Below, piece by piece: positions 17,301 through 60,903 of a stretch of 64,000 bases of DNA. The stretch comes from Hormiphora californensis (taxonomy: Eukaryota > Animalia > Ctenophora): contig CM035360.1 in NCBI GenBank assembly GCA_020137815.1, forward strand, positions 2,232,001 through 2,296,000, in the 5' to 3' direction. The stretch's first letter is position 1. Each line of letters begins with the position of its first letter. Made by a program: the position numbers and the translations under genes. The notes below the pieces were generated by a model, which searched no databases, was not told the DNA's origin, and saw nothing but the letters and a program-made list of their open reading frames with translations.

Positions 17301-20300
17301 TGTCTCTGCAGACAAACGTATTTACAGTCCCGACAGACGGATACGTATTTAATGTCTCGACAGACGTACACGTATTTAAATGTCTCGTCAGACGTACACG
17401 TGTTTAAATGTCTCGTCAGACAGTCCCTGTTTTTGAATGTTCCTCACTTGTTGTTTAAATTTTGTCTCGACAGGCGATGCAGGGCGTTGTTGACAGGTTT
17501 CCATTCGCCCCGACCCACCACACTACATTTTGTACATCTAATTTATTTAGGACGACTCTACATGAGACACACGGTAGACACTAAACATTGGACTTTCACA
17601 AATTTACAAAGTCATTGTCTCTGTCGTATGTCTGTAATATTCCTTATGTGTGTGGTGGTGTCAACTGGTGTGTTTGTAAGTTTTGGTGAAATATGAAATA
17701 AGAAATGATTTGATGCTAGGTGATCTGGATTATGCGTAATACGTATTTGATTGTGTGACCTCAAAACTCAAAATTATTTCGAGTTTGGTTATTGATAATC
17801 TCTCCGTTTGTTTGCTACCAAAGTTGTAAAGTTGTAATTCAAAATTGTGTAACTGTAGTGGATTTTTCGAATAAATTTTAAGGATTCAGTTCCTTAGTTA
17901 CCACTTCAATTGCCATGGCAACTGTGTAATTGACGCTGAAAGTGGTGGAAGAACCACACGGCGACGCCGGTTGGGTTATCAAAAGTCTTACTCGAGGCAC
18001 CTGACACACTCAATGGGTGTGCTAGAGGTTATAAAATGTTAAATTATAAGATTTCGATTTACACGGTGTGATTTTAACTGTCTTTGATCATTTGATTAAG
18101 CGCCTATTTTCGTTGATGTTACCAAGTTGTCTTGTTTATGGTTAATTAACTGGTTAACTATATATTTTACTTCTCTTGTATAATAGTTAACGATATTTAA
18201 ATTTAGAACAAAGTCATGTGTTCGACGGCAATGGGTTTATAATTAATGATAATCATGTCTGTTTCAGATTTGAACGGTTATTAAAGTTATCTGGTTAAAT
18301 ATCAGTATTCCTTAGTTGTATTCTGTTCTATGCTAATTGTTTGCATTATCATTTTGTATACTTAGTGCCAAGTTCTTGTGTTGATTTTTTTTCAGTTTTA
18401 GACGGTAATTAGGGCTATCTACAAAAAAGTTAATATTCTATGTTTTCGGCCTGAGTTATGTCGATTCCAAATAAAGGGCGTATCGGGCAGTATTATAGTG
18501 AGGGTATATCGTTTACGGGATGTTTTTTTGTCTCGTGTTTGGGCAACTACCAGTTTATCGAATTTTATAGTTTTTATTATAATTTCTTGTTATATTAATA
18601 GTATTATAAGTTAAATTATGTATTATTCATGTGCGTTATAATATTCAATCTTTGTTTAATGTTTGTTTATCTGCAGTAAAGTGTACGTTTATTCGAGAGT
18701 TAATTGATTTATTTAAGCGCTGCTTGTTGTACTGTAAAACTAGATATTTTCGAGGCAATTAATTTTCGCGATTCGATCAAAATTTACTATTTTCGCGATT
18801 TTAATTTTCGCTAATCCCACTGCTACCCCCATTTCACGGTCCTAGTCTATTGTCTAATTACGCCAAGAGTGCAGTCATCATTGCCATGAGACACCAGACC
18901 TGCTTGGCGTAGACCAATGAAATGTGAGCATTTTCTCATTGCTGATTGGCTCTAAGAGATAGCCAATCAGGGGTGAGACAGAAAAGGCTCACATCTCATT
19001 GGCTTACAACTCCTACTGAATCCCTTGCCACGTATAAGAGCAGTGGTCACATGACCATTATTTTCTGTAAAAAATCGTCCAAAATATTTTCGCGGAATTA
19101 ATTTTCGCGGATTTTCCAGCCAAAAATAAAGAGCGAAAATAAAAATCTCACGAAAATTTCTAGTTTTACAGTATATTAATATTTATTAAGTTAATTGAAT
19201 TTATTTTATTTTATCCCGGGTGGGGTCTCTCTGCCCCATGGGGTGCTCGCTGCCCCATACTAGAGTGTGATTACGTAATATTGCAATTTCATGGCATTGT
19301 GCTTTAATATGACCAACGTTGGTTTTTTTGTATTTAATTAATTAAAAGCGTATACTTACAAGTTTGCTGTAAGTAATAGCAATATATTTAAGTGATTGAG
19401 TACGGTACCATGATAAGTGATTAGGGTATTCACAGTTCGAGTGATCAGTTCGACCGATGATCCCCCATCATGGTAATAATAAAACGGGCTGGCCAGCCAA
19501 AGTTTCCGGACTCAAATCTTAAGTGTTTAGAGGTACCTCGAGGTAATATAATATGTACAAGAAACGTTAATTAATTAGTTTAAATTGTTATTAATTGCCA
19601 TGTGTGTGTGTGTGTCGTGTACCTCCCGTACTTCCACCCACTTGCTGTCGTTGGGGAGCAGCGATCCCTAGATTTCACAGTTCTCTCCTCAGGTCACCAA
19701 CACACATGGCTGCCCAGAGCGCCGTGCTCGATCTCCCGGTCAGGTCCCACCAAGGTAGCGCCGGGTTTCCCCGGTACCCCTTAGTGGTACCCTTCCATTG
19801 GAAGACACGAGTCGACAGACGAGAACTGTTTCGATAAAGAGCATGAAGGTCACCACCAACAGCAGGCGCACTAGTACTACTGTACCAGTCTTACGGTACT
19901 GGGTTTCCCCAGAATAGGTTAAATCGCCGAACGATAGTGCGCGTTCATCTTCACCATGATGAGGCACCATTTGTGCACTACCACCTGCCTGTTTCCAGGC
20001 GTGTACCTCTGATCGGGGTACAGTGGTAGGGTTCGGTCCATCGAGTCGTCATAGCAGCTATGATCGAGTCGACCCAGGTGGCGCTGTTCTTTTTGTTTTG
20101 CCGATCTAGCTGTGGGGGGCCAGTCCAAAGGCTAGTGACTTGGTTTGTATTGCGCTTTTGCTAGTTGCGGATTTGCTTCTGCCGTGATGGTTTCAACAGA
20201 CTCTACCTGATGAGATCAGGACTTTGCCAGTGTGCACTTTTAAACTACCGTTGGTATAGAATCATTTTGGTGGTAGCGTTATGTTTTATTTGAATAGACC

Positions 20301-23300
20301 GGATTTGGTGACTACGTTGGTGAGTTTCCTTAGTTCCAGTGGCTCGTCTTCATTGTAAATGTTTTCTTTGATGTTTTGATACTCTTGAGTGAATCTGAGG
20401 TGGTCAAGGTCAGGACAGTTTAGTAGTTTGTGTTTGGAGTTTTCTCTTTCCCCACATAACTCACAGTTGGGATTTATGGAAGGGTCTCTGTGGGAGAGGG
20501 CGCTTCCTAGGTTGTTCTGGCCCGATATGGCCAGTGTCAGACTTCTCATTGTCTCCTTGTTTTTGATTGTTAGTTTAGTGTTTTCTCTAATAATCTTTCC
20601 GATAATCGTTGTGGTAAACTCAGAGTAATTTTTCGTCTTTAGTTCAGCGATTATTCCTGTCTTGTGTTGTTGTTTCAGCTTTGCCGTTATTTGGCTCTTT
20701 GTTTGTCCCAGTGCATTCTGGGTGTTTTTGCTGTTTGCAGTCGCTTGTTTTGCTATTTGATCTGCCCTTTCATTACCTTCTATGTTTGCATGGGCCTTCA
20801 CCTTTACTATTTCTACGCCATTATCTCTTTGCAGTTTGTGTATACTTCGTAGGGTTTCAGTTAGTTGTTTTGAGTTTGCAAAATTTCTTGTTAGTCTTCT
20901 CAGTGTAGTGCTAGAGTCGGTGTGGATCACTAGGTGTGACTCCTTTGTTTCCATTTCTAGTAGTTTCTTTATTACCAATTGTATTGCCAGTAGCTCTGCT
21001 TGATTTATGGTGTTTTCGGGTGCTGTTAGTTTCCTGGTTATCCATGTAGATTATGGCTCCTGCCTCTGTCATATGTGTTGAGTCTTTCTTAATTCTTGAC
21101 CCATCTGTATACGCGTTTGTTATTTTGTACTTGCTCAGTTGGGAGTTTTGTTCAAAGGTTATATCGGTGTGTTTTGTCTGGTCGATGGCATTAGGAATTT
21201 TTAGGCTTGTTATGAGTAATTTCATCGCTTTCGAGTGCGTTAGATGAGCTCTTTTTTCGTGGAAGGGGTCTGTCCATCAGTTTCCCTCAGCCTTCAGGTG
21301 TATATATAGTTGTTGATACTTTCTTTGTTGATATGGTAGGTGACATCGTCCACTCCTGCCATTGTGGTTAGCACTATGTGCTGATTGTGTTCGTGTCCTC
21401 CGGTAATCCTTCGAGTGATAGAGTTCTGTGCTGCTTCCAGCTTCATCTTGAGTGTTTGGTTTTTCAGCGCTTTCTGTCCCCATATGCCTGCCCCGTATGT
21501 CAGGGTCTTCATAAGGATATTGTCGTGAACGTATCTGCCTTGGGCTGTGCTTATTCCCCATTTTGTTGTCATGAGGTGTCTCAGTGGTCTCGCAGATCGT
21601 TTAATTGTTTCTGTTTTATTTTGGACGTGGGCTTTGTAGTTTAAGTTTTTGTCCAGGGTTATTCCTAGATACATCGCCTGGTTTGTGACTGGGATAGTGT
21701 AGTGCTAGAGTCGGTGTGGATCACTAGGTGTGACTCCTTTGTTTCCATTTCTGGTAGTTTCTTTATTACCAATTGTATTGCCAGTAGCTCTGCTTGATTT
21801 ATGGTGTTTTCGGGTGCTGTTAGTTTTCCAAAATCCAGTTTCTGGTTTTTGTCATATATGTTTTGTTGTATCGTGTATCGCCGATACTATCGGAAATTTA
21901 ATTATTATTATTATTATTAAATCTGTTTACAATAAATTGACACTGTCAATATTGCCCTCCTATTTGCGAGGAAAATGGAACTCTCTAGGTCTCTTTCACA
22001 CTTTCTCAGCTGTCAGATCATACAAAAAAATATAAAATGTCGATTAAAATACTGATTAGATAATGATTAAAATATATTGTAAATTGATTAAATAAGTTAG
22101 TTAAAAATTCACTCCGTGGAGTGCGATTCGTACACAGTGTGTACGTCTCGGGCTGGTCAGTTATACATTTACAATTGATTAGAATTATATAAACCCATTA
22201 CACAAGCAGTTGATCCCCAAATAAAGATTGTTCTATTACAGCTCTTACTAGCTTTCTAAAGTTCGATTTTACCTGCTTGTCTTTGGAGAAAATTAGTGGA
22301 AGATGGAAGTTCATTTCATAAGAAGATATCACCCTTAGTTCCTCACGGGGCCCTTCCACATCTTTTATCGCAGAACATTCAAACAACTTGTGGAATGTTG
22401 AATCTGGGAGTTGGCCACATTCAAGACAATTAGGAACTGTAAGTGATCGCTCGTATCTCAGGTAACTGAAGCTGAAGTCTTGAAAACGTAAGGATCTGCC
22501 ATGTACAAAGTCTAAGACCTGAGATGAGTTCTGTCGGGACATGTTTCTTGGAATTATGGGGAAATCCAAAGTGGCCTCTGAGTTGATAAGGTTGGCGAGT
22601 TCTTCTTGAGAGTGAATAGGAAGTATGCTGAAAGGGTCATCTCGAGTCAAATGGTTAATCGATGATTTGAGTGACCGGTCCCATAAACTACATGTGTACT
22701 GTCTCATTTCCTCTTTTGAGTACAGGAAAGTGTCCGGCTCTAAACTTTCCAAGTTAATAGTTCTGATTGAATCTCTGTTAGAATCCTGGATCTGGACACC
22801 GTCTAGTTGAGTCGACTTCCAAACCAAATATCTTTTGGTAGCAGCAATCTGCCAGAAGAACACATGATTTTGTTCCGCTTCAATTTGTAGTAGTTTAGCT
22901 GATATATTATCTTTAGCTGCAAGGCCTTTTAGGACAAATTTGGTTACCACTGTTTCCACAAGAACGTCAATAGGAGGCACGCATGCTAGGAGTTCTGACA
23001 GAGGTTTGGCTATGTGAACTTGTCCCCCTGTTATCTTCAGCCGTGCTCGGGAAAGAAGATCTCCGAAGAAGTCCGTTCGCTGTCTTAACCAAACTGGTGC
23101 TGCATAAAGGATGTTTGTCAAGATTACTGTTCTGAATAGTAGCGAAAGCCCCGAACTGTTAATCCCTGTCAGTCGACCAGTCATTGAGGTTAATGTGTTC
23201 CAGTTAAACCAGCATCTTTTCAGTACATCAGCAGCATGAGTCATGAAATTTAGGTTACTATCAATGTAAACCCCAAGGACTTTACTATTCTTGGCAAAAG

Positions 23301-36400: not shown

Positions 36401-39400
36401 CCTTAGAACGGGTTAAGAGGATGGGTCCTGGTCCGCATGGCATAGTGCGCAAAATATTCTTGGCCTATGCTACAGGCCCTAGAAGCCGTGGAAAACGCGC
36501 GCACTTGGGGTCTGCAGCGCATGCCAAAAAATATTCTTGACTTTTCGAGTTTCGAAAAAAAAACCGCGCAACTTTTTCAGTTCGCGCCGTCACGATTCAC
36601 TTTGAAGATTCTTCAGCGCGCGCAATTTCTGTCCAAAACAAGCGCGTTTGTATATTTGCGCGTCCGATTTTCTTAATTAAGCAATTAACGATTAATTAAA
36701 CACTTTAGTTGGTCAAATTAGGTAAAATTATGTCGGAAAATGATAAATGTATCACTCTTTTTAAAGTCAAAGTGTCCCAAAAAGTCCAATCACTGTTTGA
36801 AATCATCCAACTTTGAGAGTCGATTCCTCTGTCCAGAAATCGTTTCTGGCTTATCCACCTATACGTTGCACCAGTTCAAGGGATTCTCTACCTGGGAAAA
36901 AAAGATGGTTACTTATAAAGCTGTCGTTTACTGGGACTAAGGGTTGGGGGAAGAGAGGTCAAATTAATTCAAATGGCCGTCAGTTTAGTTGAAGACCAGA
37001 AGAATAAGAGACAAATCCTTCGACACGAAGGTGTCAAATTGTCTCCTCTAACATATCCCAGAATTTTGGGTTTTATGGATATTCCGTTCTCCCGTAATTG
37101 CCAAAAAACCGATTTGAGCAAATCGGCGATTACGCCACGGTTTTTGAGAGTTTCAAATCGAGACATGTTCGTTGCATTCATTTAGAACATGACCGATCAG
37201 AAAATCCAAAAATTAAAACGCTAACTAGCGCCGTTTAGCAGAACGAAGCATTCTACGAGTGCCCTAGTCGTGACTGTGCCCCCTATGTGAGGGGATCGCC
37301 CTACGGGCGCGCGAACATGGGGGGCGCGACGTGCCCAAGTAAGGACCCATAAAAGAATGCTCGTAAATGGTCTTGGGAAGGCCCGTCTGTGATACTTCTC
37401 GTTTTGGTAATTTTTTGTGTCTACAAGGCCAAAGCAGCGTTCGTTGACGCATACTGCTGCAAAGATTATGGCCCAGGCATAGTTACTCAGCCCTCCTAAT
37501 TGAGTGGTTGTAGCAGGTGTGTTTCTAAACAATATTTTGAATGAAAGATAAGATTCCCTAAATTTTGGTCTGTTTGAGTATCTACTCAGCAATGTAGTGT
37601 TTTGGATGACCTGTGGTCTCCTCTCAGATGGAGAGTCAAAAGTTAAATCTATATGTAGCTTAGTTGATTTGTGCACTAACTTAATCAGTGGAATGCGAGC
37701 AGTGGGTAGTGCTAATTTAATGAGGAATTTACTGTCTTTGCTTTTGATGATTCTACAGATTTCTTTTATCAGGTGTGTGATTTTGTCAGTTGGAGAGTGG
37801 ACAATAGCGTCTAGGTCAGACCCTACAAGATTTAAACCACTTACAGTCGAACCAAAGAACGAAATGGTGGCGTTTGGTAGTTTGGTCGTGACCAGGCGAA
37901 TCTGGTCAGCTACTTCCTCCCATGTTTTTTTGGTCCGTGGGTTGTTTGATCAGGGGTCTAAGCACTTCTCCCAGGCTACTTGGCATGATTGCCTCTAATT
38001 GGGTCCTGCGGTGGACATTAATGTATAAATGGTCTTGTTTACTAAACTCCCCTAAGTTAGACTGAGGCTATTGAGTAGTCGGTAGTAGTTGTTCTTTCCT
38101 TTATTAAGTCAAGTCAAGTCAAGTTATCTATTATATAAGGTAGAAGGGCCTTGCAATGATTTGTATTCTGAGTCCCTAGGAGGCAATGGTTGCTATATAT
38201 TATTGGGACCAAAACGGTATGAATCATACGATTTGAGTATTTATTGATGCTGGTTCTAAAGTGGCCTATCTAATCATTATCTATGCCTTGATTAAATTGG
38301 CTGTTTAATGAAAGAGGATTTGTGTTTCTTGATATAAGATCAAGGTAAAACGTGTTGGGCTAAAACGGCTTGATTAGGTAATCGAATTAATTTTATTATT
38401 GGATCGCTTCACATATAGTTGTTGTTCAGTGGGCTAATATGATATATGTTCTGATAATATGCTAACATAATTATAGTTCTATGTACTGTGTAATTTACTA
38501 GAACGGAGAGTAATTCAAACTCAATTTCAATGGTTTTTTCACTATAAATAGAGAGAGAGATAGGTAAAATTTATGAAAAATTGGAAAGTTTTGCCGTGAA
38601 AAAGTAAACAATATCGAGTAGGGTTTCCGGGATCATGGTGTCCGGTGTATGGGAATGATGAGAGAGTTATGTGAAAGTGATTTTTATCAAATCTTTTGTT
38701 TGAAACTGTTAATTGCGAAACTTATCTACAAGTTTGTGCTGTGCTGTTAGTGAATCGCTGATTCATATGATATTTATTTGCTCGCTAGGGTGCCAATTCT
38801 CTGATGCTAGTTCTCTACTCCCCGTTTAATTTAAATAGGGTTTTAATCGTGGACAATTAGGTAAAAACAAGGAATAATTTGTGCAACCTATCTAGCGAGT
38901 GAGATCATTTGCGAATACCGTTTGGAAGTGCTTCTAGTATTTATTTTTACTAGCGAGACCTTACTGAAGTCTGATACTAAGTCGAATTATATAGTTAGTG
39001 ATAAGTAATGGTATTAATCAGGAAGCGACCGAATATTCGGTTCGGTTCGGTTCGGTTCGGAAATTCGGTGTTTTTTGGGCGGTTCGGTTCGGTTCGGTTC
39101 GGTAGGAAATTTTGGCCGAACCACCGAATTTTTTGGTCAAAAAATGCCCAGAAATCGGGCTTTTTCATGCAAAATTTTTCAATTATTTCACGAAAATTGT
39201 ATGGATTTCAATGTAAATTTCGCCGTATTAACCCTATTTCGAATCGGTGGTGCTATGTGGAAATGATTTCGCTAGTTAGCGGGTTCGATATGGATTGATT
39301 TGATACCTGACTTCCCGTCGAATCGTGTCCTCATGAGAGGGTAAACAAATTCAGAAACTTTTTTTTCAAAAAATTCATGGAGAGCACCGATCAAGGTGTT

Positions 39401-42400
39401 CAGAATCATTCTCTGAAATTTTGTAAAAAAGTTGGAAAATATTTCAAAGTCAATTTTATGGAAAATTTTCTATGTCAATTTTTGCGTACGAATCGTGTTT
39501 CGAATCGGTATTGCTAAGCGGGAGTGATGTTGCTAATTAGTGGGTCCGAGATGGATTATGCTGATACGTGATCCCCCATCAAATCTAATTAGGAAGTTTA
39601 GGAGAAACGATTCATGTTTCAATAAATCCTGCTAATTAGCGAGAGCACTGCCGCATAGCATCACCGATTCGCAACACGATTCGTACGGCAAAATTGACAT
39701 AGCATTTTTTTCCGAAATTGACTTTGAAATTCTGAATAATGAGTTCAGAGCAAGAATTAAATAGGGAAGAAAATCGAAAAATACTGGGTTTGACCGGGAA
39801 TTGAACCAGGGACCTCCAGAGAGACATGCTCGGAGCTATAAACCACTAAGCTACCAAACCCTTTGAAATATTTTACAAAGTTTTTTCACAAAATTAAATG
39901 TTTCTCTAAAAATTCATGGAGAGCATCGATCAAGGTATTGAGAATCATTACCTGAAATTTTGTGAAATTTTTTTTGTGAAAAATATTTTAAGTAAATTAT
40001 GGTATACGAATCGTGTTTCTAATCGACAATGCTAAACGGGAGTGATGCTGGTAATTAGTGGGTCCGAGATGGATTGTGCTGATACGTGATCCCCCATCAA
40101 ATCTAATTAGGAAATTTAGAGAGACACGATTCATGGTTCGTTTAATCCTGCTAATTAGCAATACCATTCCCGTATAGCATTGCCGATTCGAAACACGATT
40201 CGTACGCAAAAATTGACATAGAAAATTTACGATAAAATTGACTTTGAAAATTTTTTCACAAAATTGACTTTGAAATTTTTTCAAACATTTTTTAACAAAA
40301 TTTCAGAGAATGATCATGATTCTCAATACCTTGATCGGTGCTCTCCATGACTTTTTAGAGAAACATTTATATAGAAAAAGTTTTGTATGGCTCGGTTCGG
40401 TTCGGTTACCGAAATTCGGTTCGGTTCGGTTCGGTTCGGTTCGGTAAAAAAGTTTTTCAAATTCGGTTCGGTTCGGTTCGGTGGAAAATAACCCGGTTCG
40501 GTCGTTTCCTGGTATTAATGTGTGTTAATAAATTTTAAGCTCACTGGCATTATTATATTTATGTATTTTTTTTTTCGAAAATAGTTAGTATAAAGTAATC
40601 TATGATAATTTTTGCTTCTGTTTTTATAGGTTTTCATTGCCTGGCTCGACAATGTTTTTAGGGTTTTATAAAGTTACAAGCCTTTGTTCTGATAGAATTT
40701 TGGTTTTTAATAGTAATTTCCTGGTAATATTTTGTCCTAATAATTTCACCTTCTATATCATAGTGCAGTTTTACTAAATAAAATCATCGAAAATTGGAAT
40801 GCTTGTTGGTAATGAGTGTGTGGAGTATGACACTGTGTAGTTAATAGGGCAGCATTTATGGTTGTTGTGTGTTCATGTGTTACCTGCCCTGCTGTGAGTT
40901 ATATTAATTGTTTAGTATCGAGGTAGACTTCGTAGTCTTTGTGAATTTCGTATCATTATTTATGGTTTAAATTATTGTGGTTGTTGGTTCGTTAATGGTT
41001 CTAATGATACTATTTGTTGCGTACTTATTTCTGTAATCGACATGAACTGCTACCTGTCAATGATTATGTGTGTGTGTGTGTGTGTGTGTGTGTGGAGTTA
41101 TTAACCCCTATCCGGGTCTACATGAACTGAGTGTTTTGTAACGCTCTTTGTGATCGATTCTAAATTTATTTGTTATTCACTCATTGTGCGATGCTCATAT
41201 ATGTTGTAGAAATAGAATCATGGTGCACTACTATCTACCAATAGTTGTTTGTTAGTTAACCGTGTTCGTAGCCGAGTGTTTTTTTCTATATTTCATAAGA
41301 AGTGACCAGTTTTGTATGTATTAGATAGCGAGTTATTTTAGGACATATATGTTTTTGGTACTTCATTCGAGCTGTGCCTTGTCTACAGCTCTAGTCATGC
41401 AATGTTCCACATAGGTGGTGTACTGTTGTAGAGAGAACCTGGCCAATTGTTTGGACGGGCAGTGGGGTACTACTATGAAGCACTACTGGTGGGTATGTTT
41501 TACCAATCCCCATCGTGCTCTGTGGGCCTGAGATATAGAACTTTGAGTTGAGGAGCGGTTTATAGTAAATGGTTCTGTTTCGACTGATTCGTTTGCTGTA
41601 AGTAAACTTTGATTAAACGTGTGGCAGAACTACTGAGTATTGAGGGTGCAGGTGATCTATGTGTATTTATGGAGTTCCCTAGAGTACTCTACTAGGGCCT
41701 GTTTTATTTATTTGCTGACTGACTTGAGGAACAAGATTCGTGGGTTGGCCTTGTTTTGTTCAAATAAGGCAAGATTTGTCAAAGTGTATGCTATGAGGAT
41801 TAGGCCGTATGCAGATGAATCATAACTCTATATCAGTCTTTGCACGAGAAGACGATACAAACTGACCTTTGTGATGACAATGATTAAAGAGTCTATAATT
41901 AACTGTCAGAAATGGGTTGGTGGCTACTAGCTGAAGTGTAATGGAGTCAAGACTGCGTTTCTCCTGTCATATGGGAACATTGTTCCGGAAAAGGAGACGT
42001 GGGGATAGTCCCTCGTGAACTATGCTTCGGGGAGGACCCTAGGTATGTTTCTGACATTATGTCATTGGAGAGGTAAATCCCCCGGTAAATTAACTACGTT
42101 GAGAGACGACCTGGGATGCTTTTGAGGGACGAAATGTTGTAGGTTATCTGATTTCTTAATGTCTTGGCTAGGATATTAGCTAGTGATGATTCAATATTAT
42201 TATATGCTAGGTTACGGTACTTTGCTCTACCCCAGCTTCCCAAAGAAGCCCTTGGATAAATTCTCAGCTAGTGTGTAATGTGCAATTTGTATACTGTTTG
42301 TACTCTGACCTCTGTATTGTTGCTAGGTTGCAACTACCTGTCTTACTTAGTACTACACATCCACCCTGTTGGGTAGCGAGTTACGTTCGAAATAAGTCAA

Positions 42401-48400: not shown

Positions 48401-51400
48401 AACGAACATAAGCATCAGTCGGTTCGCGACCAAATTAGTGTATTTATTGAATTTATTTAAAGTTTTAGTGCGTTAAAGTTGGGTTGGTTCTTCCCAAGCG
48501 TCGTGTTGTCCCTGTCCGGGTTAGCATTGGCAATCGGCCTGGTGCTGGCTGCAGTTGTCTGAGTCTGCGTCGCGTCCACTGGTTGTGTGGATTTTATTAG
48601 TTTGTTGGGTCCTGTTTTTGACCGTTGCCAACTGTTGTTGTTTGACGGAGAGGGTAGTAGCGGTGGTCTGTTCAGTCCTTGTCCACCGTACCTGTTGTTT
48701 CTATAGTTGTTCATGTTATTCGCCCCTCTATAATTTTTCTTCTGCTGGTGTTGCTGGTATTGCTGGATCCTCTTACTAGAAGAAAAGCACTCATTCATCC
48801 AGTGCCAGCCACCACATTTTCTACACAGCGAAGGTGGTTGTGGGCTGTTCCGTTTAGCTGGACAATCTCTGGCAAAGTGACCATACTTTCTGCAGGAGTA
48901 ACATCTAAAAGTTTTGTACTGCGTCTTGGGATTCTCTTGTGATGCATTGGGTTGTTGTGCTGTTGTTGCCTGTGAAGGGGGATTTTGTGTGACATCGATC
49001 TCTACCGTAGTTATAGGTAAATTGGTTTCTTCCTGTGAGTGTATGGGAGGTGTTTCTAGTAGTAGGGCTATTTCCTCCTCTATGGTTGGTAAAATGTTGT
49101 GTCCACCCTCTAGTACAATGTCAGTAAGTTGATAATCGGTGAGATCTTTAGAACAGGAAGCCTCGGGGAATGGTCGAGCATTTTCCAAGACATCAACAAT
49201 CATAGCTGTTTCCTCCCCTCCTTTCTTGGCTGCACAATTTTCAATTTCCGCCTTGTTTCTCTGAGTTTTGGGTGCGAGAGTACTGATAATTGCTGGTTTT
49301 ATAGATTCCCAATCAAGTGTTTGTTCGGGCAAAAAATTGAGCGCTCGCACCTTATTTTTGTCCCCTTTGGACAGATAGGTGAGAAAAGAAATGACAATTT
49401 TATCTTTGCTCGGTGAGCTAAGATGCATATAGTTATCATAATCTTTGATAAATTCGGAGATACAGTCGGACCCCGATTTAACGGCACCCTCGGGGGAAAG
49501 GGTTTTGTCCGTTAAATCGGGGTGTCCGTTAAATCGGGGTTAAGCATATTTGGCCCATAAAACCCTATTTTTTTCCAAAATGTTATACTAAAACACATCT
49601 GTGTTAAATGTAATGTCCATGTATTGATTACATGATAATTTCTGATTAGAAAAAGAAAATAATTTAAAAAAATTTCAAAAAAATTATAAATCATCAACCA
49701 CGTCTGAATCGTTTATCGAATCAGTGCATCTTATCGCATGTCTTGCTGCTAATTAGACGGTTCGAAACGAACCGATACGTGATACCATGCCGAATCGGGG
49801 CATTTTAAGCGGGGTGAGGAAGAATTCGAATTTCAAAATATCTTTTTCTCTGAAAAATCATGGGGAGCACCGATCAAAGCATTGACAATCAATCTGTAAA
49901 ATTTTGCAAAGAAAGTTATGAAAATTTTTCAAAGGTATATCAACCACGTCCGAATCGTGTTTCGAATCAGTGCATATTATCGCACGTCCTGTCGCTAATT
50001 AGACGGTTCGAAACGAACCGATACGTGATCCCCATGGGGCCAGTTTAACAAAGTCAAAATTGCGATTCGATGGGCCTCATGGGGATCACATATCTGTTCG
50101 TTTCGAACCGTCTAATTACCGGCAAGACATGCAATAAGATGCACCGATTCGAAACACGATTCAGACGTGGTTGATACACCTTCAAAAAAATTTAAAAAAT
50201 TTTCAAAAAAAAATTTTCAAAAAATTTTTGGGGGAAATTTATCCTGCCGTTAAATCGGGGTGCCGCTAAATCGGGGGCCGTTAAATCGGGGTCCGACTGT
50301 ACTCATTGTTTCACTATTCGAAAATTTTAGGTTTTGTGGCGGCTTCCAAATTTGTTGTTTGTTCACTCGTATCGCGGAAATTTGTATAATTTACTTGGCT
50401 TTCCGAAAATTTTGGCCCCTTTGTATCATCTACGAATTCACCAATGTCAGATCTAGTACTATTTCCACCTCTTTGCAATGTTTTTGTGTCATTTTCATGT
50501 GGTGTGATCATCATTTGCACTAGTTCTTGGTAATTACTATCAAACTTGTTTAATGAAATAACTAGGTCTGTATTTGCTTTAATAGCGGTGTTATGATAAA
50601 TGTCACTATGTTAGTCGGTTGTCAAATATCAAAGGACAATTTAAATATCACAACTAGTTTTACAAGTGTACGCCACAACAAAAATACTACTTGTCACAGC
50701 ACCAGTTGTAGTGTGATTTGTCGTGGGTAATGGCTGGTCGTCTAGTGTTAGGCCCAAGGTGCGTACCTGGTCGTGACGGTGGTGTGCCGAAGTATAACAG
50801 CGACGTGGGAAGGTGTCGTTGAGAAGGTGTACACGTGCTTTACGTGTAGAACAGGGACAGGAGGTGGGGCACACGATTCAGTCGTGTGTAGAAGGGATCG
50901 ATGAGAGGACGTTGAATATCGACCAGTGGTGGGTGTTGTTGAAGGATTCGTAGAAGTGATACAAGTTGGTTTTGGGGTCGTTCAAAGAAGTAACTTGTTA
51001 CAAAACAAAACGTAAAACGTAAAACTTGGAAGTGAAGGCGGAGTTTGTTGTGGTGATTAATATCTTTTCGCCTTCCCATCGTCATGCCTATTGGCTTTAG
51101 CCAATTAGGAATGCCGATGATCAAGTGCGGTTGTTCTGAGTTGTTCTGACTAGTTCTGAGCTGTTCTGAGTTGTTCTGACTAGTTCTGAGCTGTTCTGAG
51201 TTGTTCTGACTAGTTCTGAGCTGTTCTGACGTTATATAATAGCTGTTCTGTCTCTATGCTCTCTAGTTCTCTGTGGTTACATAGCAACAGAGGGAGAGAG
51301 AGAGAGAGCAATAACGATTAACAGTTAGAGGTATAGAGAACTACTGATATATATCTCTCTGGGCTCTCACTGTCAGCCCCAGATAGTACTATGGTGGTAT

Positions 51401-51820
51401 AAATCGGCCAAATGAAAAAATAAGGAATAACAGAAATAAAAACAAAATTTAGTTTAATTTAAGAAATAAAAATACTAAAAAGTATAAAAGTAAAAGTAAA
51501 GTAAAAAACAAAAAAGTAAAAAGTAAAAAGTTAGAAAAAATAAAAACAAAAACAAAAATAAAAACAAACAAAAATTAAAATAAAACAAAAAAAAATCAAA
51601 AATAGAAAAAACTTTTTTTAGAAAAGCTTTTTTTTGAGTTGAACTTTTTTCTTCCTGAGTTGAACTTTTTTATTTGGGTCCCGGTCGTGGTATAAATCGG
51701 CCAAACGGCCAAAATTAGGAGGACCGTTCTGTAATATTTTGATCTCCGAAGTTAAACAACCGCTGGTCGGGTTAGTACTTGGATGGGTGACCAAACAACA
51801 TATCTCTCTCTCTCACACTC

Positions 51821-51858
<38 letters not shown>

Positions 51859-54800
51859 CTCACTCTCACTCTCTCTCACACACACACACTCTCAATCTCA
51901 CTCTCTCTCTCTCTTTCTCCTCTCCTCTCTCATTCTTCTCTCTGCTGTCTCCTTCTGTCCTCTCTCTCCACTCGGTGCCTCTCGCTCTCTCCTCTCTCTC
52001 TCTCGTCTCTCCTCTCTCTCTCTTCCTCTCTCTCTCTTACTCTCTGTTCTCTCCTCTTTTCCTCTCTCCTTCCCCTCTGTACCCTCTCTCTCTCTCTTTT
52101 CTTCCTCCCCCTCCTCTCAAGCCAATCATTGGCTGCCATAGAGGAAAAGATAGAGAGAGAGAGAGGAGAGAGAGGAGAGCAGTAGAGAGAAGAGGAGGAG
52201 AGAGAGAGAGAGAGTAAGAAAGAGAGAGAGAAGAGAGAGTGAGTTGAGTGTGATAGTTGTTAGCTTAATTGGGGGTTTTTTTTATGTTTTTTTTATTGGG
52301 GTTTTTATACCCGTCCCTTTGCTTTCTGCCTTTTCCTTTTTTTATTTTTTGCCGAGCGCGTGCGTCCTCCTCGGTGCATTGGCGTGCTAGCGGCCCCCCG
52401 TTGGGTTGCCGTGCGGCGCGCCGCTCTCGGTGTGTGTTGGTCGCGCGCGCGCGTTTGGTGTTTGTCGGCGGCGCGCGCGCGCCGCGCGCTCGCGAGGGCC
52501 CCGCGCTCGCGCGCGGGGGGGTGGCGGGTTTTTTGTTTGGTCACCCATCCAAGTACTAACCCGACCTAGCGGTTGTTTAACTTCGGAGATCAAAATGTTA
52601 CAGAACGGTCCTCCTAATTTTGGCCGTTTGGCCGATTTATACCACGACCGGGACCCAAATAAAAAAGTTCAACTCAAGAAGAAAAAAGTTCAACTCAAAA
52701 AAAGTTTTTCTAAAAAAATTTTTTTCTATTTTTGATTTATGATTTTATTTTTTGTTTTATTTTTATTTTTTTGTTTTTATTTTTGTTTTTATTTTTGTTT
52801 TTTCTAACTTTTTACTTTAAAGTTTTTTACTTTACTTTTACTTTTACTTTTTAGTATTTTTATTTCTTAAATTAAACTAAATTTTGTTTTTATTTCTGTT
52901 ATTCCGTATATTTTCAGTTGGCCGATTTATACCACCATATAGTACACAGTACACTGGCAAAAATCTTGTTTGTACCGGTCTCACCGACAAAGACCCTCGC
53001 TGGGGTATTGTTAGGCATCCATCGGGATCGGAAGTGGGTGGAAACTATGACGTGTGTATGGGGTAAATTAGATATCTAGATTACTTTCTTGGTAATGGGA
53101 GCTTAGTGTGTATGGGGTAAATTAGATATCTAGATTACTTTCTTGGTAATGGGAGCTTCTGTAGAAATCAGATGCACCATTCCAAATGGCAAATTTGATT
53201 TTATGTTTTAGAATTAAATGAATTTTATTTCAACGAGGGTTTAATTTAAACTACGAGGGTTTAATTTAGTGTGAACATGTCTGTCTGTGCCATTTCATGT
53301 CTGTCCAGTCCCCTTCTAAACCCCTACACCACGCAACCTCCCCTTACACCACGTCGTAGGAAGGCGTTAGACTCCCTTCCCTAACATTTACTATTCACTT
53401 ACTAATTTTATCACACTGTGGTTGAACACTCGACCACGATCCATCCTCCTGACAAGATAGTGTTGCACTTCCGATAAGGATGTGGTTGTTAGCACATTCG
53501 ATGGTTGTAGTGGTCCCTGTTGGTTGCGTAGTCCAGCTTCCTTGAGTTGATCCCTCAACAGTAAAGGCAGGACATTCTGAACGGAATGAGCAAGGTTTGA
53601 GGTTTATTTTGCACGGGACAAAATATGCTTGGCTACACATCTAAGTTCATCCCAAGCGCTGATGATGGTTGATCATGTGCACAGCTAGATGTCATCAGAG
53701 CTTAGGAACAAATATATGCTGCATGGACCGAAATGCTCTGTGCTCCGTGCAAGGTCCTTTGGTTGGTATCCTGTGCTTAGCCCCTACTAAACAAAACTCA
53801 GATAAGGGGGGAAATCTCAATTTGGTAATGCTCAATAATATTACAAATTATATGTCGAACCTTAGGATAAAATTTACCCTTTTTTTCAAAAAGTTTTTTG
53901 TTTCCTCTAGGCATATATTTCCCTTTCTTGGTAATCGTCCATCTGTCGGAGTTACACAAGACCCTTGTTTAACCCCAGTTTTTCTCAAACCCTTCACCTT
54001 ACCTTCAGGTTTGTAGAAATCAGATGCGCCGTCCCATTTAGAAAATTTGATCTGTTCCACAAAATCACCGCCCAGCTTTGCAACACAGTTGCTATCGGAA
54101 CTATCTGCGAACAGGTAGTTCAGCACCTCAACATTATTGCATGTGATGATGAGGGCGGTTATTGATTTAGAAACTGTCCAGATTTTCCCAGCCTCCTCCG
54201 GGGGTTGTACTGGCAGGTCTGTCCAAATGTTTGCTCCGGTAGTAGAACTGCAGTCTAATATTTTATATCGTATTGTGGAGGAATACCAAACAGCCACAAT
54301 ACCGATCCTAGTACCGTCCTTGTCGTACATATGCACATTGATCTCATCACTACTGTCAAGTGTAGAGTCCGTTTGTATCTGGAGAGGTGTTACCTCCAGG
54401 TCCCAGGTTATTAAGACATTGTGCTCTACAGCTTTCCAACCTGGAAGAATTTGACTTGTATCATGGATCTATACTAGTGGATCCTAATAATACTTAATTG
54501 TGTTTTAAAGTATAGTTTGGATGAGGCATGAGGTCACGTCATCCTACTGAGTCATCATCAAGACCAATAATTGGTCTCGATAATGAGCCCTTGATCACAA
54601 AAAACCATCAGATTATATCAATATTTATCAAAGTCTTAGCTAACCTGTTCCAGTAGTTCTTTGCCACAAAACAGCTGCCGAGATGAAAAATACCAGAATT
54701 TTACGCATCGGTATTCGGTACATTCGTTTCTCTAAGTTACAAGAACAAGAATTATTGCATTTATTCATAATGCGGTGTTCCCCTGCCACAAATGGGTGCA

Positions 54801-57362: not shown

Positions 57363-58066
57363 CTTGTTTCCTGCAAAGAGGAGCTTCATGATTCCACACT
57401 CCGTCGCTATTACAGGTCCTCTCAGAGCTACCATCTCGCACGTGCTTCTTCTGACAGTTGATGGTCACTGTCTGTCCTGCATCTGTTTCGTACCAACTTC
57501 CTTGCACAGATCCGTCCACGGTAAATCCGAGGCACACTGATGGATGGAAATGAATAACTAACCACTATAATAATGGTGTATACAAATTTTGGATATATTG
57601 AGCAGTGATTGATAAAATTGCAGTTACAGTGGTAAATCATTACTTTATTAGTTCTGATTTCACCTGTTAGTTTTTTTGCAGCGAACAGCTGTGCATCATA
57701 AATGACGTATAGTCCTATTTTTGGTGATTTACACACAACATTACCTGTTGGCTTTGCTCGGTAGCTATCTGATGCGGTGTCATAGGAGGAAAACTTTATC
57801 TTCTCCACAACATCTCCTTCCCACTTTGATACACAGCTAGCCACACTACTATCACTGAACTTATAGTCCAGTACCTCCACCCCATTGCACTCTATGCTAA
57901 GGGTGGTGGCTGTCTTCCGAATTGTCCACGTCTTGTCCACTTCCCCTGGTGGCTTTACTGGGAAGTCAGCCCATGAGGCGGTGCAGTAGGTGATGTAGTA
58001 TGGGATAGGTGAGGTTAACAACAGACTCACTGTTCCAATATAACTCTCATCTGCAGTGTATATATG
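57363..58066 (-). pseudogene. Gene C, same family; domain exon (to 57745) is cut at its 5' end by a TE cluster; sushi exon 57536-57363
   Basis: PVKPPGEVDKTWTIRKT..CNGVEVL..DTASDSYR and a sushi exon; the N-terminal ~35 aa of the domain are missing at the junction. Confidence 0.7.
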
Positions 58067-58132
58067 ACACACACGGGAGGGAGGAGGGACGACGGCCCGT
58101 CGTCCCTCCTCCCTCCCGTGTGTGCAGTTGCA

Positions 58133-58784
58133 GGTAGGCGGTAAATGTTAACCAGATCTGTGAGAATTTAGCACGTTTTTGCCCATAACTCAGCCATTTA
58201 TTGACCAATTTGCAAAATCTTTGGCTCATTGGAAAGAGGGCCTTGAGATCTCTCAAATGAGCTCAAGAAAATGAAAATTGGCGCAAATTGCGCGGCGTGG
58301 TAGCGAAAACGCGCATTTTGCGCAATGACGCCGCGCATTTTGCGCCGATTTTAGTTTTATTGGGCTCATTTGAAAGAGCTCAATGTCCTCTTTCCAACGC
58401 GCCCAAGATTTTGCAAATTGGTGAAGAAATGACCGAGTTAGGGTCACCACACACCAAAGTTAAAATTAAAATTAAAATTTTGATTTTAAACCCGCACACA
58501 CCAGCGGCCGTTAAAATTTCTCTCCCCCATTCTAAAAGTAACAATCTCGCGCGCGATTTTAACGGCGTGTTAAAATTTTATCATCCAACGCGACCGTTAA
58601 AATCGTGCGTGAGATCGTTACTTTTAGAATGGGGAGATAAATTTTAACGGCCGCTGGTGTGTGCGGGTTTAAAATCAAAATTTTAATTTTAATTTTAACT
58701 TTGGTGTGTGGTGACCCTTATGGACAAACACGTGGTTTTGCACGTACGTTTTCTCTCAGATCTGGTTAACATTTACCGCCTACC
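58133..58784. mobile_element. MuDR/Merlin-like MITE with a nested Harbinger-like palindrome (58441-58717, TTA TSD)
   Basis: TIR GGTAGGCGGTAAATGTTAACCAGATCTG; 9-bp TSD GCAGTTGCA. Confidence 0.85.
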
Positions 58785-59748
58785 GCAGTTGCACTATGTG
58801 GTCAAAACGCGCATTTGTCCGATAGGAATCCTCCGTTTTGAGGGGTTTTGCGCGATTTTGTTAGGCGCTTTCAGGGAGCGTGCACGCTTGCGTGTGCTGT
58901 CAAACACCCTGGAAATTGTGTAGCAGTTGTAGGTAATCGTCTAAAGATCATTTTGCTACCCATAACTTGGCTGAAAGTGCGGCAGGTTTTGGACAGCACG
59001 GCATCAAAGTTCGTCCTATAGCCCAAAAACTGGCTTCTGTTCAAAGCGCAACCTAAATTTTGGTATCAAAAGAAAGCTAGGGGGCTAGATGCGGGGTCAC
59101 TGGATATGTGCCCCCTATGATAGTTAATAGTATGTTATAGATTCAGGGTTTTAGTTATCACTTGGAGTGATGTGATATATATAAAAACCCTGGTTGTATT
59201 TATGTGAATGGGCAAATTACCATGGCTCATATTAAGGTAGGGGATAGCACGCCCCATAATTGTAACAGTATGTTCGGACATGCTCCGAGTTTGGTAATTC
59301 GGTTAAGGACCACCGATAACGGTTTTTGCAGACTGTTCTGGCCCATGCAAATAACCTATATCAAGAAGAAGAATTGGAGAGATTATACGGAGCAAGTTTC
59401 CTTCACCGCACACCTGCACTGATAGTGATAAGCAGAGACAGCCTCTACGAAGAAGAAGAAGAAGAAGATAGTGATAAGCCGATAAGGGACCACGACGCCA
59501 AGTTGACGGAGTTGCAAGCCCCTGCTCACGTTTTGATAACGCCATTCTGCGACGTATAAATAGCGGCCAGGAGGAACCCGGAGTGTCTCAGAATTACAAT
59601 ACAAAAATTACTTACCACTTTGGTATATCTTGTGTTTTGATAGTACCTTTCTAGAACAAAACCTGAGACCATCACCACTCACCCTCACTTCACACTATCT
59701 AATACACTCACACCACACTGGTATACTGTATAGTATTTAGTTGGAAGC

Positions 59749-60903
59749 ATGTCGAATGGAAACAATACCTTTGACCAAAACGGTGTAGTCGGGGACGGCA
59801 GGGACCCCACAAATGGTGCTGATAGAACCAGGATAGAACCTGGGTTAGAGTCAGGCAATTTCGCCGATGCGGTGAAAGCAGCGGAGGCAGCTTTTGAAAG
59901 AAAGCTGGAGGAATTACTCAGGAAGGAAAACCTTCACGATCTGCCGGAGGAGAATAAACAGGGAATTAAAGCCCTGTTAAAATTGCAGAGAGCCTTGGGA
60001 GGAAACAAGGAACTAGATACCCGCTTATTGACAGCGGGAATGAGACAGCCGCTGGTGTACTCACCTGCACAAATGACTATAAGACAGTTCCTCTGTGGTT
60101 ATGAGGCCTTTGTTAATGTCTTGGGGCTGAGTGAAGCAGCCATTATCGGAGGTTTTGTAACATACCTGCCACCAAAAATGCAGGAACGAATTGTCGAATC
60201 GAACCTGGACACGTCGTCCTGGGCTGTGTATAAGGAGGGTGCTCGGAGAATTCTAGAGGATAGCTCTAGATATAACGCATTAAAAGCGCGATTTGATATT
60301 CGAAATTCCAGCCAAAAAGCTGGTGAATCAGTGCATGAATTCGGAGAGAGACTCCGAGATTTGGGTAACATTGGATTCCCTAACACGGATCCAATTGCAA
60401 GGAGTAGTAGGGACTCGGTAATGAAAGATGCTCTAGCTGCGGGCATTATAAATGATGAGGTTAGCATACAGCTAATTCGGAACATTAATAATATGAATTT
60501 TAATAGACTCCTTGAGGAGGCTATAACGCTTGAAATCTCGCATCAGGCCCGGAAAACCATCCGGGGGAGAGTTGTTGAGAGAAGAGAAGAGACTGTAGCA
60601 GTTCCAGTTCGCAGAACTGAATTCCCACATATGAATCGATCTGGGCCCTCACGACAGTTTGAGGAATATACCCCCAATAACGGATCTGATTACCAATATC
60701 AGAATAACATGCAGTACGATAATGATCGAACACCACGTTGGGAGTGTTCAGATTGTTGGGGAAGGTATCCCGGGAACTCCAGAGAGTTAAACTCTGGAGG
60801 ACAAAGTTGGTCTGACGACCGCAATAATTGGGACAACGGATCTGAGTACCATAATGACTGGTCTAATTACAGTAATTATCCTGGAAACCAGGGCTGGAAT
60901 TAA
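59749..60903 (+). CDS. Retrotransposon gag-like protein (384 aa)
   Basis: QKAGESVHEFGERLRDL matches the retrotransposon gag Q..GESV..F..RL motif; a protease-like remnant with a stop follows. Confidence 0.75.
   Translation: MSNGNNTFDQNGVVGDGRDPTNGADRTRIEPGLESGNFADAVKAAEAAFERKLEELLRKENLHDLPEENKQGIKALLKLQRALGGNKELDTRLLTAGMRQPLVYSPAQMTIRQFLCGYEAFVNVLGLSEAAIIGGFVTYLPPKMQERIVESNLDTSSWAVYKEGARRILEDSSRYNALKARFDIRNSSQKAGESVHEFGERLRDLGNIGFPNTDPIARSSRDSVMKDALAAGIINDEVSIQLIRNINNMNFNRLLEEAITLEISHQARKTIRGRVVERREETVAVPVRRTEFPHMNRSGPSRQFEEYTPNNGSDYQYQNNMQYDNDRTPRWECSDCWGRYPGNSRELNSGGQSWSDDRNNWDNGSEYHNDWSNYSNYPGNQGWN

Follow-up and report, generated by a model that had tools for sequence, protein, structure and literature searches.

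A young transposon of the ctenophore Hormiphora californensis carries part of the 5S rRNA control region in both inverted arms

Results

The DNA analysed here (the window) is a 64,000-nucleotide stretch of the Hormiphora californensis genome, and all positions refer to it. At 51390 to 52939 lies an element of 1,550 bp, which begins with TATGG and ends with CCATA. Its inverted arms of about 408 bp are a left terminal inverted repeat (TIR) of 409 nt (51390-51798, + strand) and a right TIR of 407 nt (52533-52939, - strand). These lengths were determined by arm alignment (385 matches, 12 mismatches and 22 gap columns; 91.9% identity across 419 by blastn) and agree with the approximately 405 bp given in a preliminary description of this DNA. 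The same description claimed a 6-bp target-site duplication (TSD). TAGTAC is indeed found on both sides of the element (51384-51389 and 52940-52945, + strand), and a test of junction parses and two empty sites agree with it. Among the parses tested, the 6-bp TSD with the element at 51390-52939 was the only one in which the termini match perfectly over a long stretch (22 nt; the runner-up had 4 nt). A TA duplication, as in Tc1/mariner, and a 7-bp duplication are formally possible but were rejected, because each would require asymmetric ends.

The element interrupts a long terminal repeat (LTR; 50707-52946, - strand) one base from the edge of that repeat. An uninterrupted sister LTR (15649-16332, - strand) provides an empty site inside the window: when the insert and one TSD are removed from the host LTR, 684 of 684 bases are identical. 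The second empty site is in a contig of sequencing run X9, from another individual, which skips 1,556 bases. The insertion is polymorphic between individuals and, therefore, the element family is mobile now. The element is a young, recently inserted, non-coding transposon. A large inverted repeat with a low-complexity core might also be produced by misassembly or by a read that folds back on itself, the latter named in the preliminary description as a possible cause of the symmetry. However, the arms differ from each other by 12 substitutions and 22 gap columns, the TSD and two empty sites are present, and runs X1, X3 and X9 have short-read contigs of high depth that contain the arm sequence. 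The chance of an artefact is thus negligible.

Each arm contains an outer and an inner copy of an 18-bp motif, which is likely a transposase site. The outer copies are at 51394-51411 (+) and 52918-52935 (-), and the inner copies at 51687-51704 (+) and 52628-52645 (-). The 14-bp core of the motif has 4 matches within the window, against 0.27 expected. The left inner copy overlaps a predicted Pol III start at about 51701; the corresponding start in the right arm is predicted at 52631. Between the arms, the CT/GA-rich core that had been described was found in part. A CT-rich tract (51799-52119, +) and a GA-rich tract (52135-52250, +) are separated by a short palindrome, AGCCAATCATTGGCT (52120-52134, from sequence and fold), but the core also has a GC-rich, CpG-dense block of 187 bp (52346-52532; 75% GC, 39 CpG), which adjoins the right arm. 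B-box-like matches within the element occur in the A-rich part of the arms only.

The termini and the TSD were compared with those of known superfamilies. According to PMC10045372, IS3EU elements have TA..TA ends and usually a 6-bp TSD; rust-fungus IS3EU families are described with TAYGG..CCRTA ends and a 6-bp TSD. For GingerRoot, PMC6839031 gives a 6-bp TSD, TA..TA ends in 72 of 77 and the pick-up of gene fragments. In the element described here, TATGG..CCATA fits TAYGG..CCRTA, the terminal repeats are inverted and the TSD is 6 bp at this one insertion. Occurrence in aquatic animals and capture of host fragments are further likenesses. In contrast, GingerRoot TIRs measure 100-150 bp, against about 408 bp here, and our element differs in that it has no transposase and that both arms carry a 5S control region. 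The main texts of PMC6839031 and PMC11934779 contain 0 instances of "5S r", and PMC10045372 contains 0 of "5S rRNA". The hAT6-like affiliation put forward earlier was compared by TSD length rather than by terminal signature, and shares the 6-bp TSD. Because the TAYGG..CCRTA ends and the 6-bp TSD match exactly, IS3EU/GingerRoot is a better fit than hAT6. Judged from its ends and from the TSD of a single insertion, the element is likely a non-autonomous cut-and-paste transposon of the IS3EU/GingerRoot type; the suggested search for a cognate transposase found none by Pfam among the 48 open reading frames of the window.

The claim of a 5S rRNA segment at the inner end of both arms was borne out by alignment. 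Nucleotides 41-92 of 5S rRNA lie at 51741-51792 (+) and at 52591-52539 (-), where the stretch from box A to the intermediate element (IE) is longer by one base. Both segments face inward, and the box spacing is preserved in the left arm. Box coordinates follow the Xenopus numbering. On this numbering, box A (with A at nt 56) and IE are present as had been stated, while box C lacks nt 93-97 and ends at nt 92. Identity is 41-45 of 52 to 11 Rfam-verified eukaryotic 5S genes. Since these references were retrieved using nt 70-92 as the pattern, nt 41-69 are the unbiased part of the comparison; here 18-22 of 29 positions are identical (mean 20.4; window background 7.0), a score attained at 1 of 127,942 window positions. 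Identity at nt 73-92 is complete, in references themselves picked on nt 70-92. In box A (nt 50-64), 7-11 of 15 positions are identical to the 11 outside references, and IE has 3-4 of 6 matches. At nt 56 the arms have A and all 11 outside references have G; A56 may be native to the host.

Strong 5S similarity is confined to the control region and ends at its 3' edge. Upstream, nt 1-40 show a weak trace of 5S similarity (15.8 of 40 positions; p about 0.01 without gaps and 0.085 with gaps). Aligned with each other, the arms have no substitution and a single gap over the 53 positions of the 5S part, against 2 in the adjoining 101, which is not a meaningful difference. A functional 5S rRNA gene (about 120 nt, RF00001) is not what the arms contain: only nt 41-92 are present, and Rfam searches of the element, a 113-bp fragment and the window returned no 5S call. 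Otherwise, Rfam gave CT/GA-driven microRNA noise under the gathering score and one tRNA outside the element. When examined by hand, nt 67-71 of the arm pair with nt 104-108 of the 3' end of the host 5S (a loose end in run X9), and nt 69 is C in 8 of the 11 outside references. Because of this pairing, the 5S piece likely derives from the host's own 5S.

Runs X3 and X9 contain a diverged paralog that has this layout too, with 21 differences across 168 bases. Of these, 10 are listed: 0 in the 33 listable control-region positions, 0 in the 25 motif positions (51690-51714) and 10 in the other 46 positions (Fisher p 0.004). This test is post hoc, uses a single paralog and rests on 10 of the 21 differences; when nt 41-49 are included, p is 0.20. 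Gene conversion with native 5S would be equally expected to give the pattern. Contigs of run X9 at the arm/5S and 5S/CT junctions have depths of 1241, 2844 and 1638 with a short side of just 19-21 letters; bridging required 31 letters, and only paralog contigs strictly bridged. Depth peaks over the 5S part, which native 5S or overlapping unitigs could cause, so that no copy number is given. The family motif had 6 matches in metagenome contigs, each limited to 18-27 bases and judged to be chance, and scans of viral contigs gave 0 matches. Word shares in runs of other organisms were 0.06-0.10, and run X5 contigs covered simple repeats only, which gives no evidence of the family in another species. 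Taken together, the TIRs, paired motifs, TSD, empty sites and paralog uphold the description of a class II element with the 5S control region in both arms.

Discussion

What the 5S segments do was considered in several ways. The preliminary description proposed built-in convergent Pol III promoters or, alternatively, TFIIIA/TFIIIC anchors. With convergent promoters, transcription would run inward, continue beyond the first TTTT and produce RNAs of 350-580 nt that cover the CT/GA core, and these RNAs might fold back or overlap and lead to small-RNA regulation of the family. The inward orientation of both segments, which stands, and the kept box spacing of the left arm agree with the promoter proposal. 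Moreover, the next T runs lie far inside (52057, 52097 and 52276 on the + strand; 52148 on the - strand), complementarity between the CT and GA tracts is 70-79%, and Cassandra transcription passes an early terminator near its start. However, counted from the predicted start, a TTTT, a possible Pol III terminator, occupies +37 to +40 in both arms (51737-51740, +; 52592-52595, -), and A at nt 56 of box A departs from 11 of 11 references. RNA-like run X21, whose type is guessed and which consists of contigs only, gave 0 contigs matching the element, which is weak evidence and no proof of absence; word shares of RNA runs with the element are at most 0.09. The promoter proposal is weakened by these observations, and we regard it as unlikely.

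Another explanation is passive cargo: one arm may have received a SINE3 head or a 5S pseudogene, which was copied to the other during arm lengthening and has no function, the similarity being due to the youth of the family or to conversion by native 5S. The long, low-complexity arms, the trace in nt 1-40, the altered nt 56, the right-arm indel and the box C cut at nt 92 are all in keeping with this history; so are the fragment pick-up of GingerRoot noted above and the fact that Pol III RNA is dispensable for DNA transposons. In contrast, the sharp similarity is restricted to the control region, the paralog has no listed change there though its flanks changed, and in Ajax and Cassandra a 5S segment trimmed in this way is interpreted as functional. 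Passive cargo is possible, but we consider it rather doubtful.

We prefer the explanation that the 5S pieces are anchors for TFIIIA/TFIIIC. This is plausible as predicted binding. In full, the element would be an IS3EU/GingerRoot-type transposon whose arm 5S pieces dock TFIIIA and are not the promoter of a long RNA; we give this about an even chance. It is favoured by the terminal signature and TSD, the empty sites, the paired motif in each arm, the paralog, the TTTT at +37 in both arms and a 5S fragment that spans the control region and ends at its 3' edge. In a review, IE and box C are high-affinity TFIIIA sites and box A is a low-affinity site, and TFIIIC sites are stated to work as insulators without Pol III. 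One arm may have taken up a 5S gene or a 5S-derived SINE head at its inner end, the other arm then receiving a copy; the nt 1-40 trace is equally compatible with a SINE3 head that has decayed and with selection for the boxes. A transposase provided in trans would bind both the outer and the inner copies of the 18-bp motif and mobilise the element. TFIIIA on IE and box C, possibly with recruited TFIIIC, would be located about 40-90 bp inside the inner motif, and the bound proteins may maintain open or insulated chromatin around this motif in both arms, and this would promote excision. Pol III, if it is recruited, is predicted to begin near 51701 and 52631 and may stop at the TTTT at +37, giving an RNA of about 38 nt or occasional read-through. 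Because a DNA transposon needs no RNA copy, the gain would come from the bound proteins. In a stronger and more tentative form, which we hold to be possible though less than probable, a ctenophore DNA transposon family keeps the host 5S control region in both terminal repeats under selection, TFIIIA/TFIIIC open, insulate or pair the ends, and the Pol III machinery is a structural cofactor for cut-and-paste, as a class II counterpart of Cassandra.

If the 5S control region is kept in cut-and-paste arms, this would be a second use of Pol III factors by mobile DNA, in chromatin opening, insulation or end pairing. A mobile family would scatter paired TFIIIA sites across the genome, and counts of 5S copies could be confounded by it. 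The mechanism of IS3EU/GingerRoot is little studied according to PMC11934779, and the element is a small, testable substrate for this group.

In the literature searched, 5S promoters were found only in SINE3, Cassandra and Ajax, and no description of one in DNA transposon arms was found. Those three need an RNA copy, which accounts for their 5S promoters. Every 5S-promoter element in a review table is a retroelement, which would favour an element copied from RNA, that is, an inverted SINE3 dimer or a non-autonomous DIRS/Penelope-like element whose 5S promoters make the transposition intermediate. However, about 310 bp of each arm lie upstream of the predicted start, so that the arms are not copyable from such an RNA, the inverted ends are perfect, the motifs are paired, the 6-bp TSD looks fixed, and there is no poly(A) or other tail. 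An RNA-copied element is thus very improbable.

Triticeae CACTA elements are said to be DNA transposons with 5S rDNA-like sequence; there it is reportedly internal and not in both TIRs, and the superfamily is another one. SINE3 elements resemble our element in having a 5S control region with a diverged upstream part, but they have a single 5' 5S head and a LINE-like 3' tail, whereas the two copies here lie about 350 bp inside inverted ends; the element is not a SINE3. Ajax and Cassandra, which belong to the TRIMs (terminal-repeat retrotransposons in miniature), are likewise non-autonomous. Their 5S segment is cut down to box A-IE-box C or has it at the centre, with one per terminal repeat, and varies between box A and IE, as it does here. 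They are LTR retrotransposons with two direct repeats, a site for primer binding (PBS) and a polypurine tract (PPT), and require a Pol III RNA. In contrast, the repeats of the H. californensis element are inverted, which sets it apart from the Cassandra/Ajax group, and RNA is not required.

Structure and insertion of the element

The element (51390-52939) has arms, its terminal inverted repeats (TIRs), at 51390-51798 and 52533-52939. Aligned with each other, the arms agree at 385 positions and differ at 12, with 22 gap columns. An 18-bp motif occurs twice per arm: one copy is terminal and the other lies some 293 bp further in. Its 14-bp core is found four times in the window (0.27 expected), and all four copies lie inside the arms. 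Both ends of the element are bordered by TAGTAC. Of the parses compared for the junctions, the one with a 6-bp target-site duplication (TSD) and TATGG..CCATA ends alone produced a long perfect terminal match, of 22 nt; with a TA parse the match was 4 nt, and with a 7-bp parse 0 nt.

The sequences at 15645-16331 and 50703-51389 are identical. We take them to be the LTR pair of one minus-strand LTR element, a reading based on primer-site-like and purine-tract-like motifs and a 4-bp outer duplication. The element was inserted one base off the edge of one LTR. Because the pair is otherwise identical (684/684 bases), the sister LTR represents the empty site, and the LTR pair, which has diverged by <0.44%, predates the insertion. 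Moreover, in X9, a sequencing run from a different sample and study, one contig omits 1,556 bases, corresponding to the element and one duplication (depth 470; the short side of the joint is 22 letters). This joint was not seen in runs X1, X3 and X5. Thus, the element is a real, young, mobile insertion. The preliminary description had considered that the inverted symmetry might be a read fold-back artefact; the sister LTR and the independent X9 contig exclude this.

The apparent LTR element spans 15649-52946 (minus strand; about 35.7 kb without the insert). It contains one ORF resembling gag, with a zinc knuckle (48460-49539), another resembling a poly(A) polymerase or TUTase (37224-37949), and RNase H with zf-RVT (20289-21050); neither reverse transcriptase nor integrase was found among its scanned ORFs. 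It is unusual for LTRs to be identical when the interior between them is this long and this full of repeats. Within 39362-40363, two hairpin repeats that are about 80% alike and bounded by inverted ends flank a tRNA-Thr-like unit (39785-39861, minus strand) carrying box A, box B and a T5 run; this arrangement is possibly a second fold-back element with a Pol III unit.

5S rRNA sequence in the arms

An Rfam scan made no 5S call on the arm segment. Reference 5S genes were eukaryotic contaminants of GTDB contigs; a 23-nt motif from the arm retrieved 79 loci, of which 16 were scanned and 14 gave Rfam 5S matches. Two partial hits, one locus sharing a bin with L020, the second copy in L081 and two matchless loci were dropped, and 11 full-length genes served as references. 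Across these, 41-45 of 52 positions of the left arm were identical to 5S nt 41-92. Nt 70-92 were the retrieval pattern, and the fair comparison is nt 41-69. There, 18-22 of 29 positions were identical (mean 20.4; window background, 7.0), a score attained at one of 127,942 window positions; the right arm was second (19.8).

Box A, IE and box C were placed by Xenopus numbering. Box A matches the references at 7-11 of 15 positions, with changes at nt 61, 62 and 64, and IE at 3-4 of 6; nt 56 is A in the arm and G in all 11 references. Box C reaches nt 92, and nt 93-97 are absent. In the right arm the distance from box A to IE is one base longer; this spacing can reportedly vary (Pieler 1987, from the title). 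Nt 1-40 leave at most a faint 5S trace (15.8/40; post hoc p ~0.01 ungapped, 0.085 gapped).

One X9 contig departs from the arm at nt 92 and continues as a 5S-like 3' end and TTTT. Nt 69 is G in the arm and C in 8 of the 11 outside references. Because nt 104-108 of the X9 3' end pair, by hand, with arm nt 67-71 including G69, the arm 5S piece is likely derived from the host's own 5S.

In two of the retrieved loci, both in MAG contigs (L021:329-351 and L075:141-163), the motif of the 5S control region has flanks unlike 5S and Rfam gave no match; these are possibly SINE3-like or other 5S-derived elements. In L008, L053, L060 and L063, arrays of eukaryotic 5S genes are linked to genes for U1, U2 or tRNA; all four are contaminants of GTDB bacterial bins.

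Possible conservation among copies

Arm depth was far above single-copy in X1 and X3, and likewise near the 5S part in X9, although depth is not copy number. As to the possibility, raised in the preliminary description, that other copies lack the 5S piece, no joint, and none of the loose ends listed (12 of 21), shows an arm continuing without it. A diverged paralog in X3 and X9 strictly bridges the motif, the 5S piece and the CT tract, with 21 differences in 168 bases. Ten of these were positioned, their placement depending on how the listing rule is interpreted: none of the 33 listable positions starting with box A had one, nor did any of 25 inner-motif positions, and all 10 fell among the remaining 46 (p 0.004). 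For the control region against all non-control positions, p was 0.028, and it was 0.20 when nt 41-49 were added to the 5S part. This one paralog suggests two constrained blocks, the control region and the inner motif; conversion could also have produced the pattern. The family was not found in other species (contigs covered simple repeats only in the one foreign run examined), and metagenome and viral contig scans gave chance matches or none.

Possible role of the 5S sequence

A transposase supplied in trans would bind the paired 18-bp motifs. Predicted starts at 51701 and 52631 coincide with the inner motifs. Both arms have TTTT at +37, a run as long as that after the host 5S-like end in X9, and a cut-and-paste element requires no RNA copy. 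For these reasons we favor, at roughly even confidence, the idea that the 5S piece is a candidate dock for TFIIIA, or TFIIIA and TFIIIC, that would hold the transposase sites of the inner motifs open or insulated. According to the available part of PMC12409998, TFIIIA has high affinity for IE and box C and low affinity for box A, and recruits TFIIIC; Pol III initiates roughly 50 bp ahead of box A, and TFIIIC sites without Pol III serve as barriers. That the 5S piece is passive cargo ranks second and seems rather unlikely. Productive convergent Pol III transcription from both arms ranks third and is improbable. In its favor, and against the dock reading, transcription can continue past an early T run, since Cassandra is described, in the accessible text of PMC10886601, as terminating near the start only in the second LTR. 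The RNA-like run X21 had no contigs on the element and is uninformative either way.

Other features of the window

A 3.7-kb near-perfect palindrome (8145-11823; 95%) has CAGGG..CCCTG ends and contains 32-bp tandem arrays; it interrupts a 13-bp satellite and lies inside a larger inverted repeat (8037-13449). Identical 460-bp palindromic elements lie in opposite orientation at 1827-2286 and 7549-8008. Exons of one family recur at 13437-14521, 53848-54468 and 57428-58147 (minus strand); those of its relatives that carry a name are Pleurobrachia 'putative secretory peptides', and the two exons tested had no Pfam match. A neighboring ORF had 62 relatives among 103 candidates, the organism-named ones being Pleurobrachia bachei secretory peptides (54-61% identity), which points to a probable ctenophore host. 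A 389-aa ORF (59734-60903, plus strand) looks gag-like by eye and had no Pfam match.

Comparison with known systems

Triticeae CACTA elements are said to contain internal 5S-like DNA. In the portion of a 2024 review available, elements with 5S promoters are SINEs, Cassandra and Ajax, all retroelements; DNA transposons have a single row, for Pokey, which has rDNA spacer repeats, and a figure legend counts DNA transposons among carriers of rDNA-derived sequence (PMC10946416). As far as the accessible parts go, Ajax retains box A, IE and box C alone (PMC10886601) and Cassandra varies between the boxes (PMC10853983). No description of a 5S control region in TIRs was found in the literature outside most subscription journals, supplements, Repbase and Dfam, including parts of PMC11934779, PMC12859917 and PMC8789306. 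The element is apparently undescribed in its present form.

No transposase was found among 48 window ORFs scanned (8 of 23 long and 40 shorter, mostly in 16300-51400). Therefore, we call the element IS3EU-like rather than a proven member. In the parts of these papers available, IS3EU families end in TA..TA, usually have 6-bp TSDs and form one lineage with GingerRoot (PMC10045372), rust-fungus IS3EU has TAYGG..CCRTA ends and 6-bp TSDs (PMC12730594), and GingerRoot has 6-bp TSDs and 100-150-bp TIRs and acquires gene fragments (PMC6839031). TSD length is the sole likeness noted to hAT6, whereas the match to the ends described for IS3EU/GingerRoot is exact.
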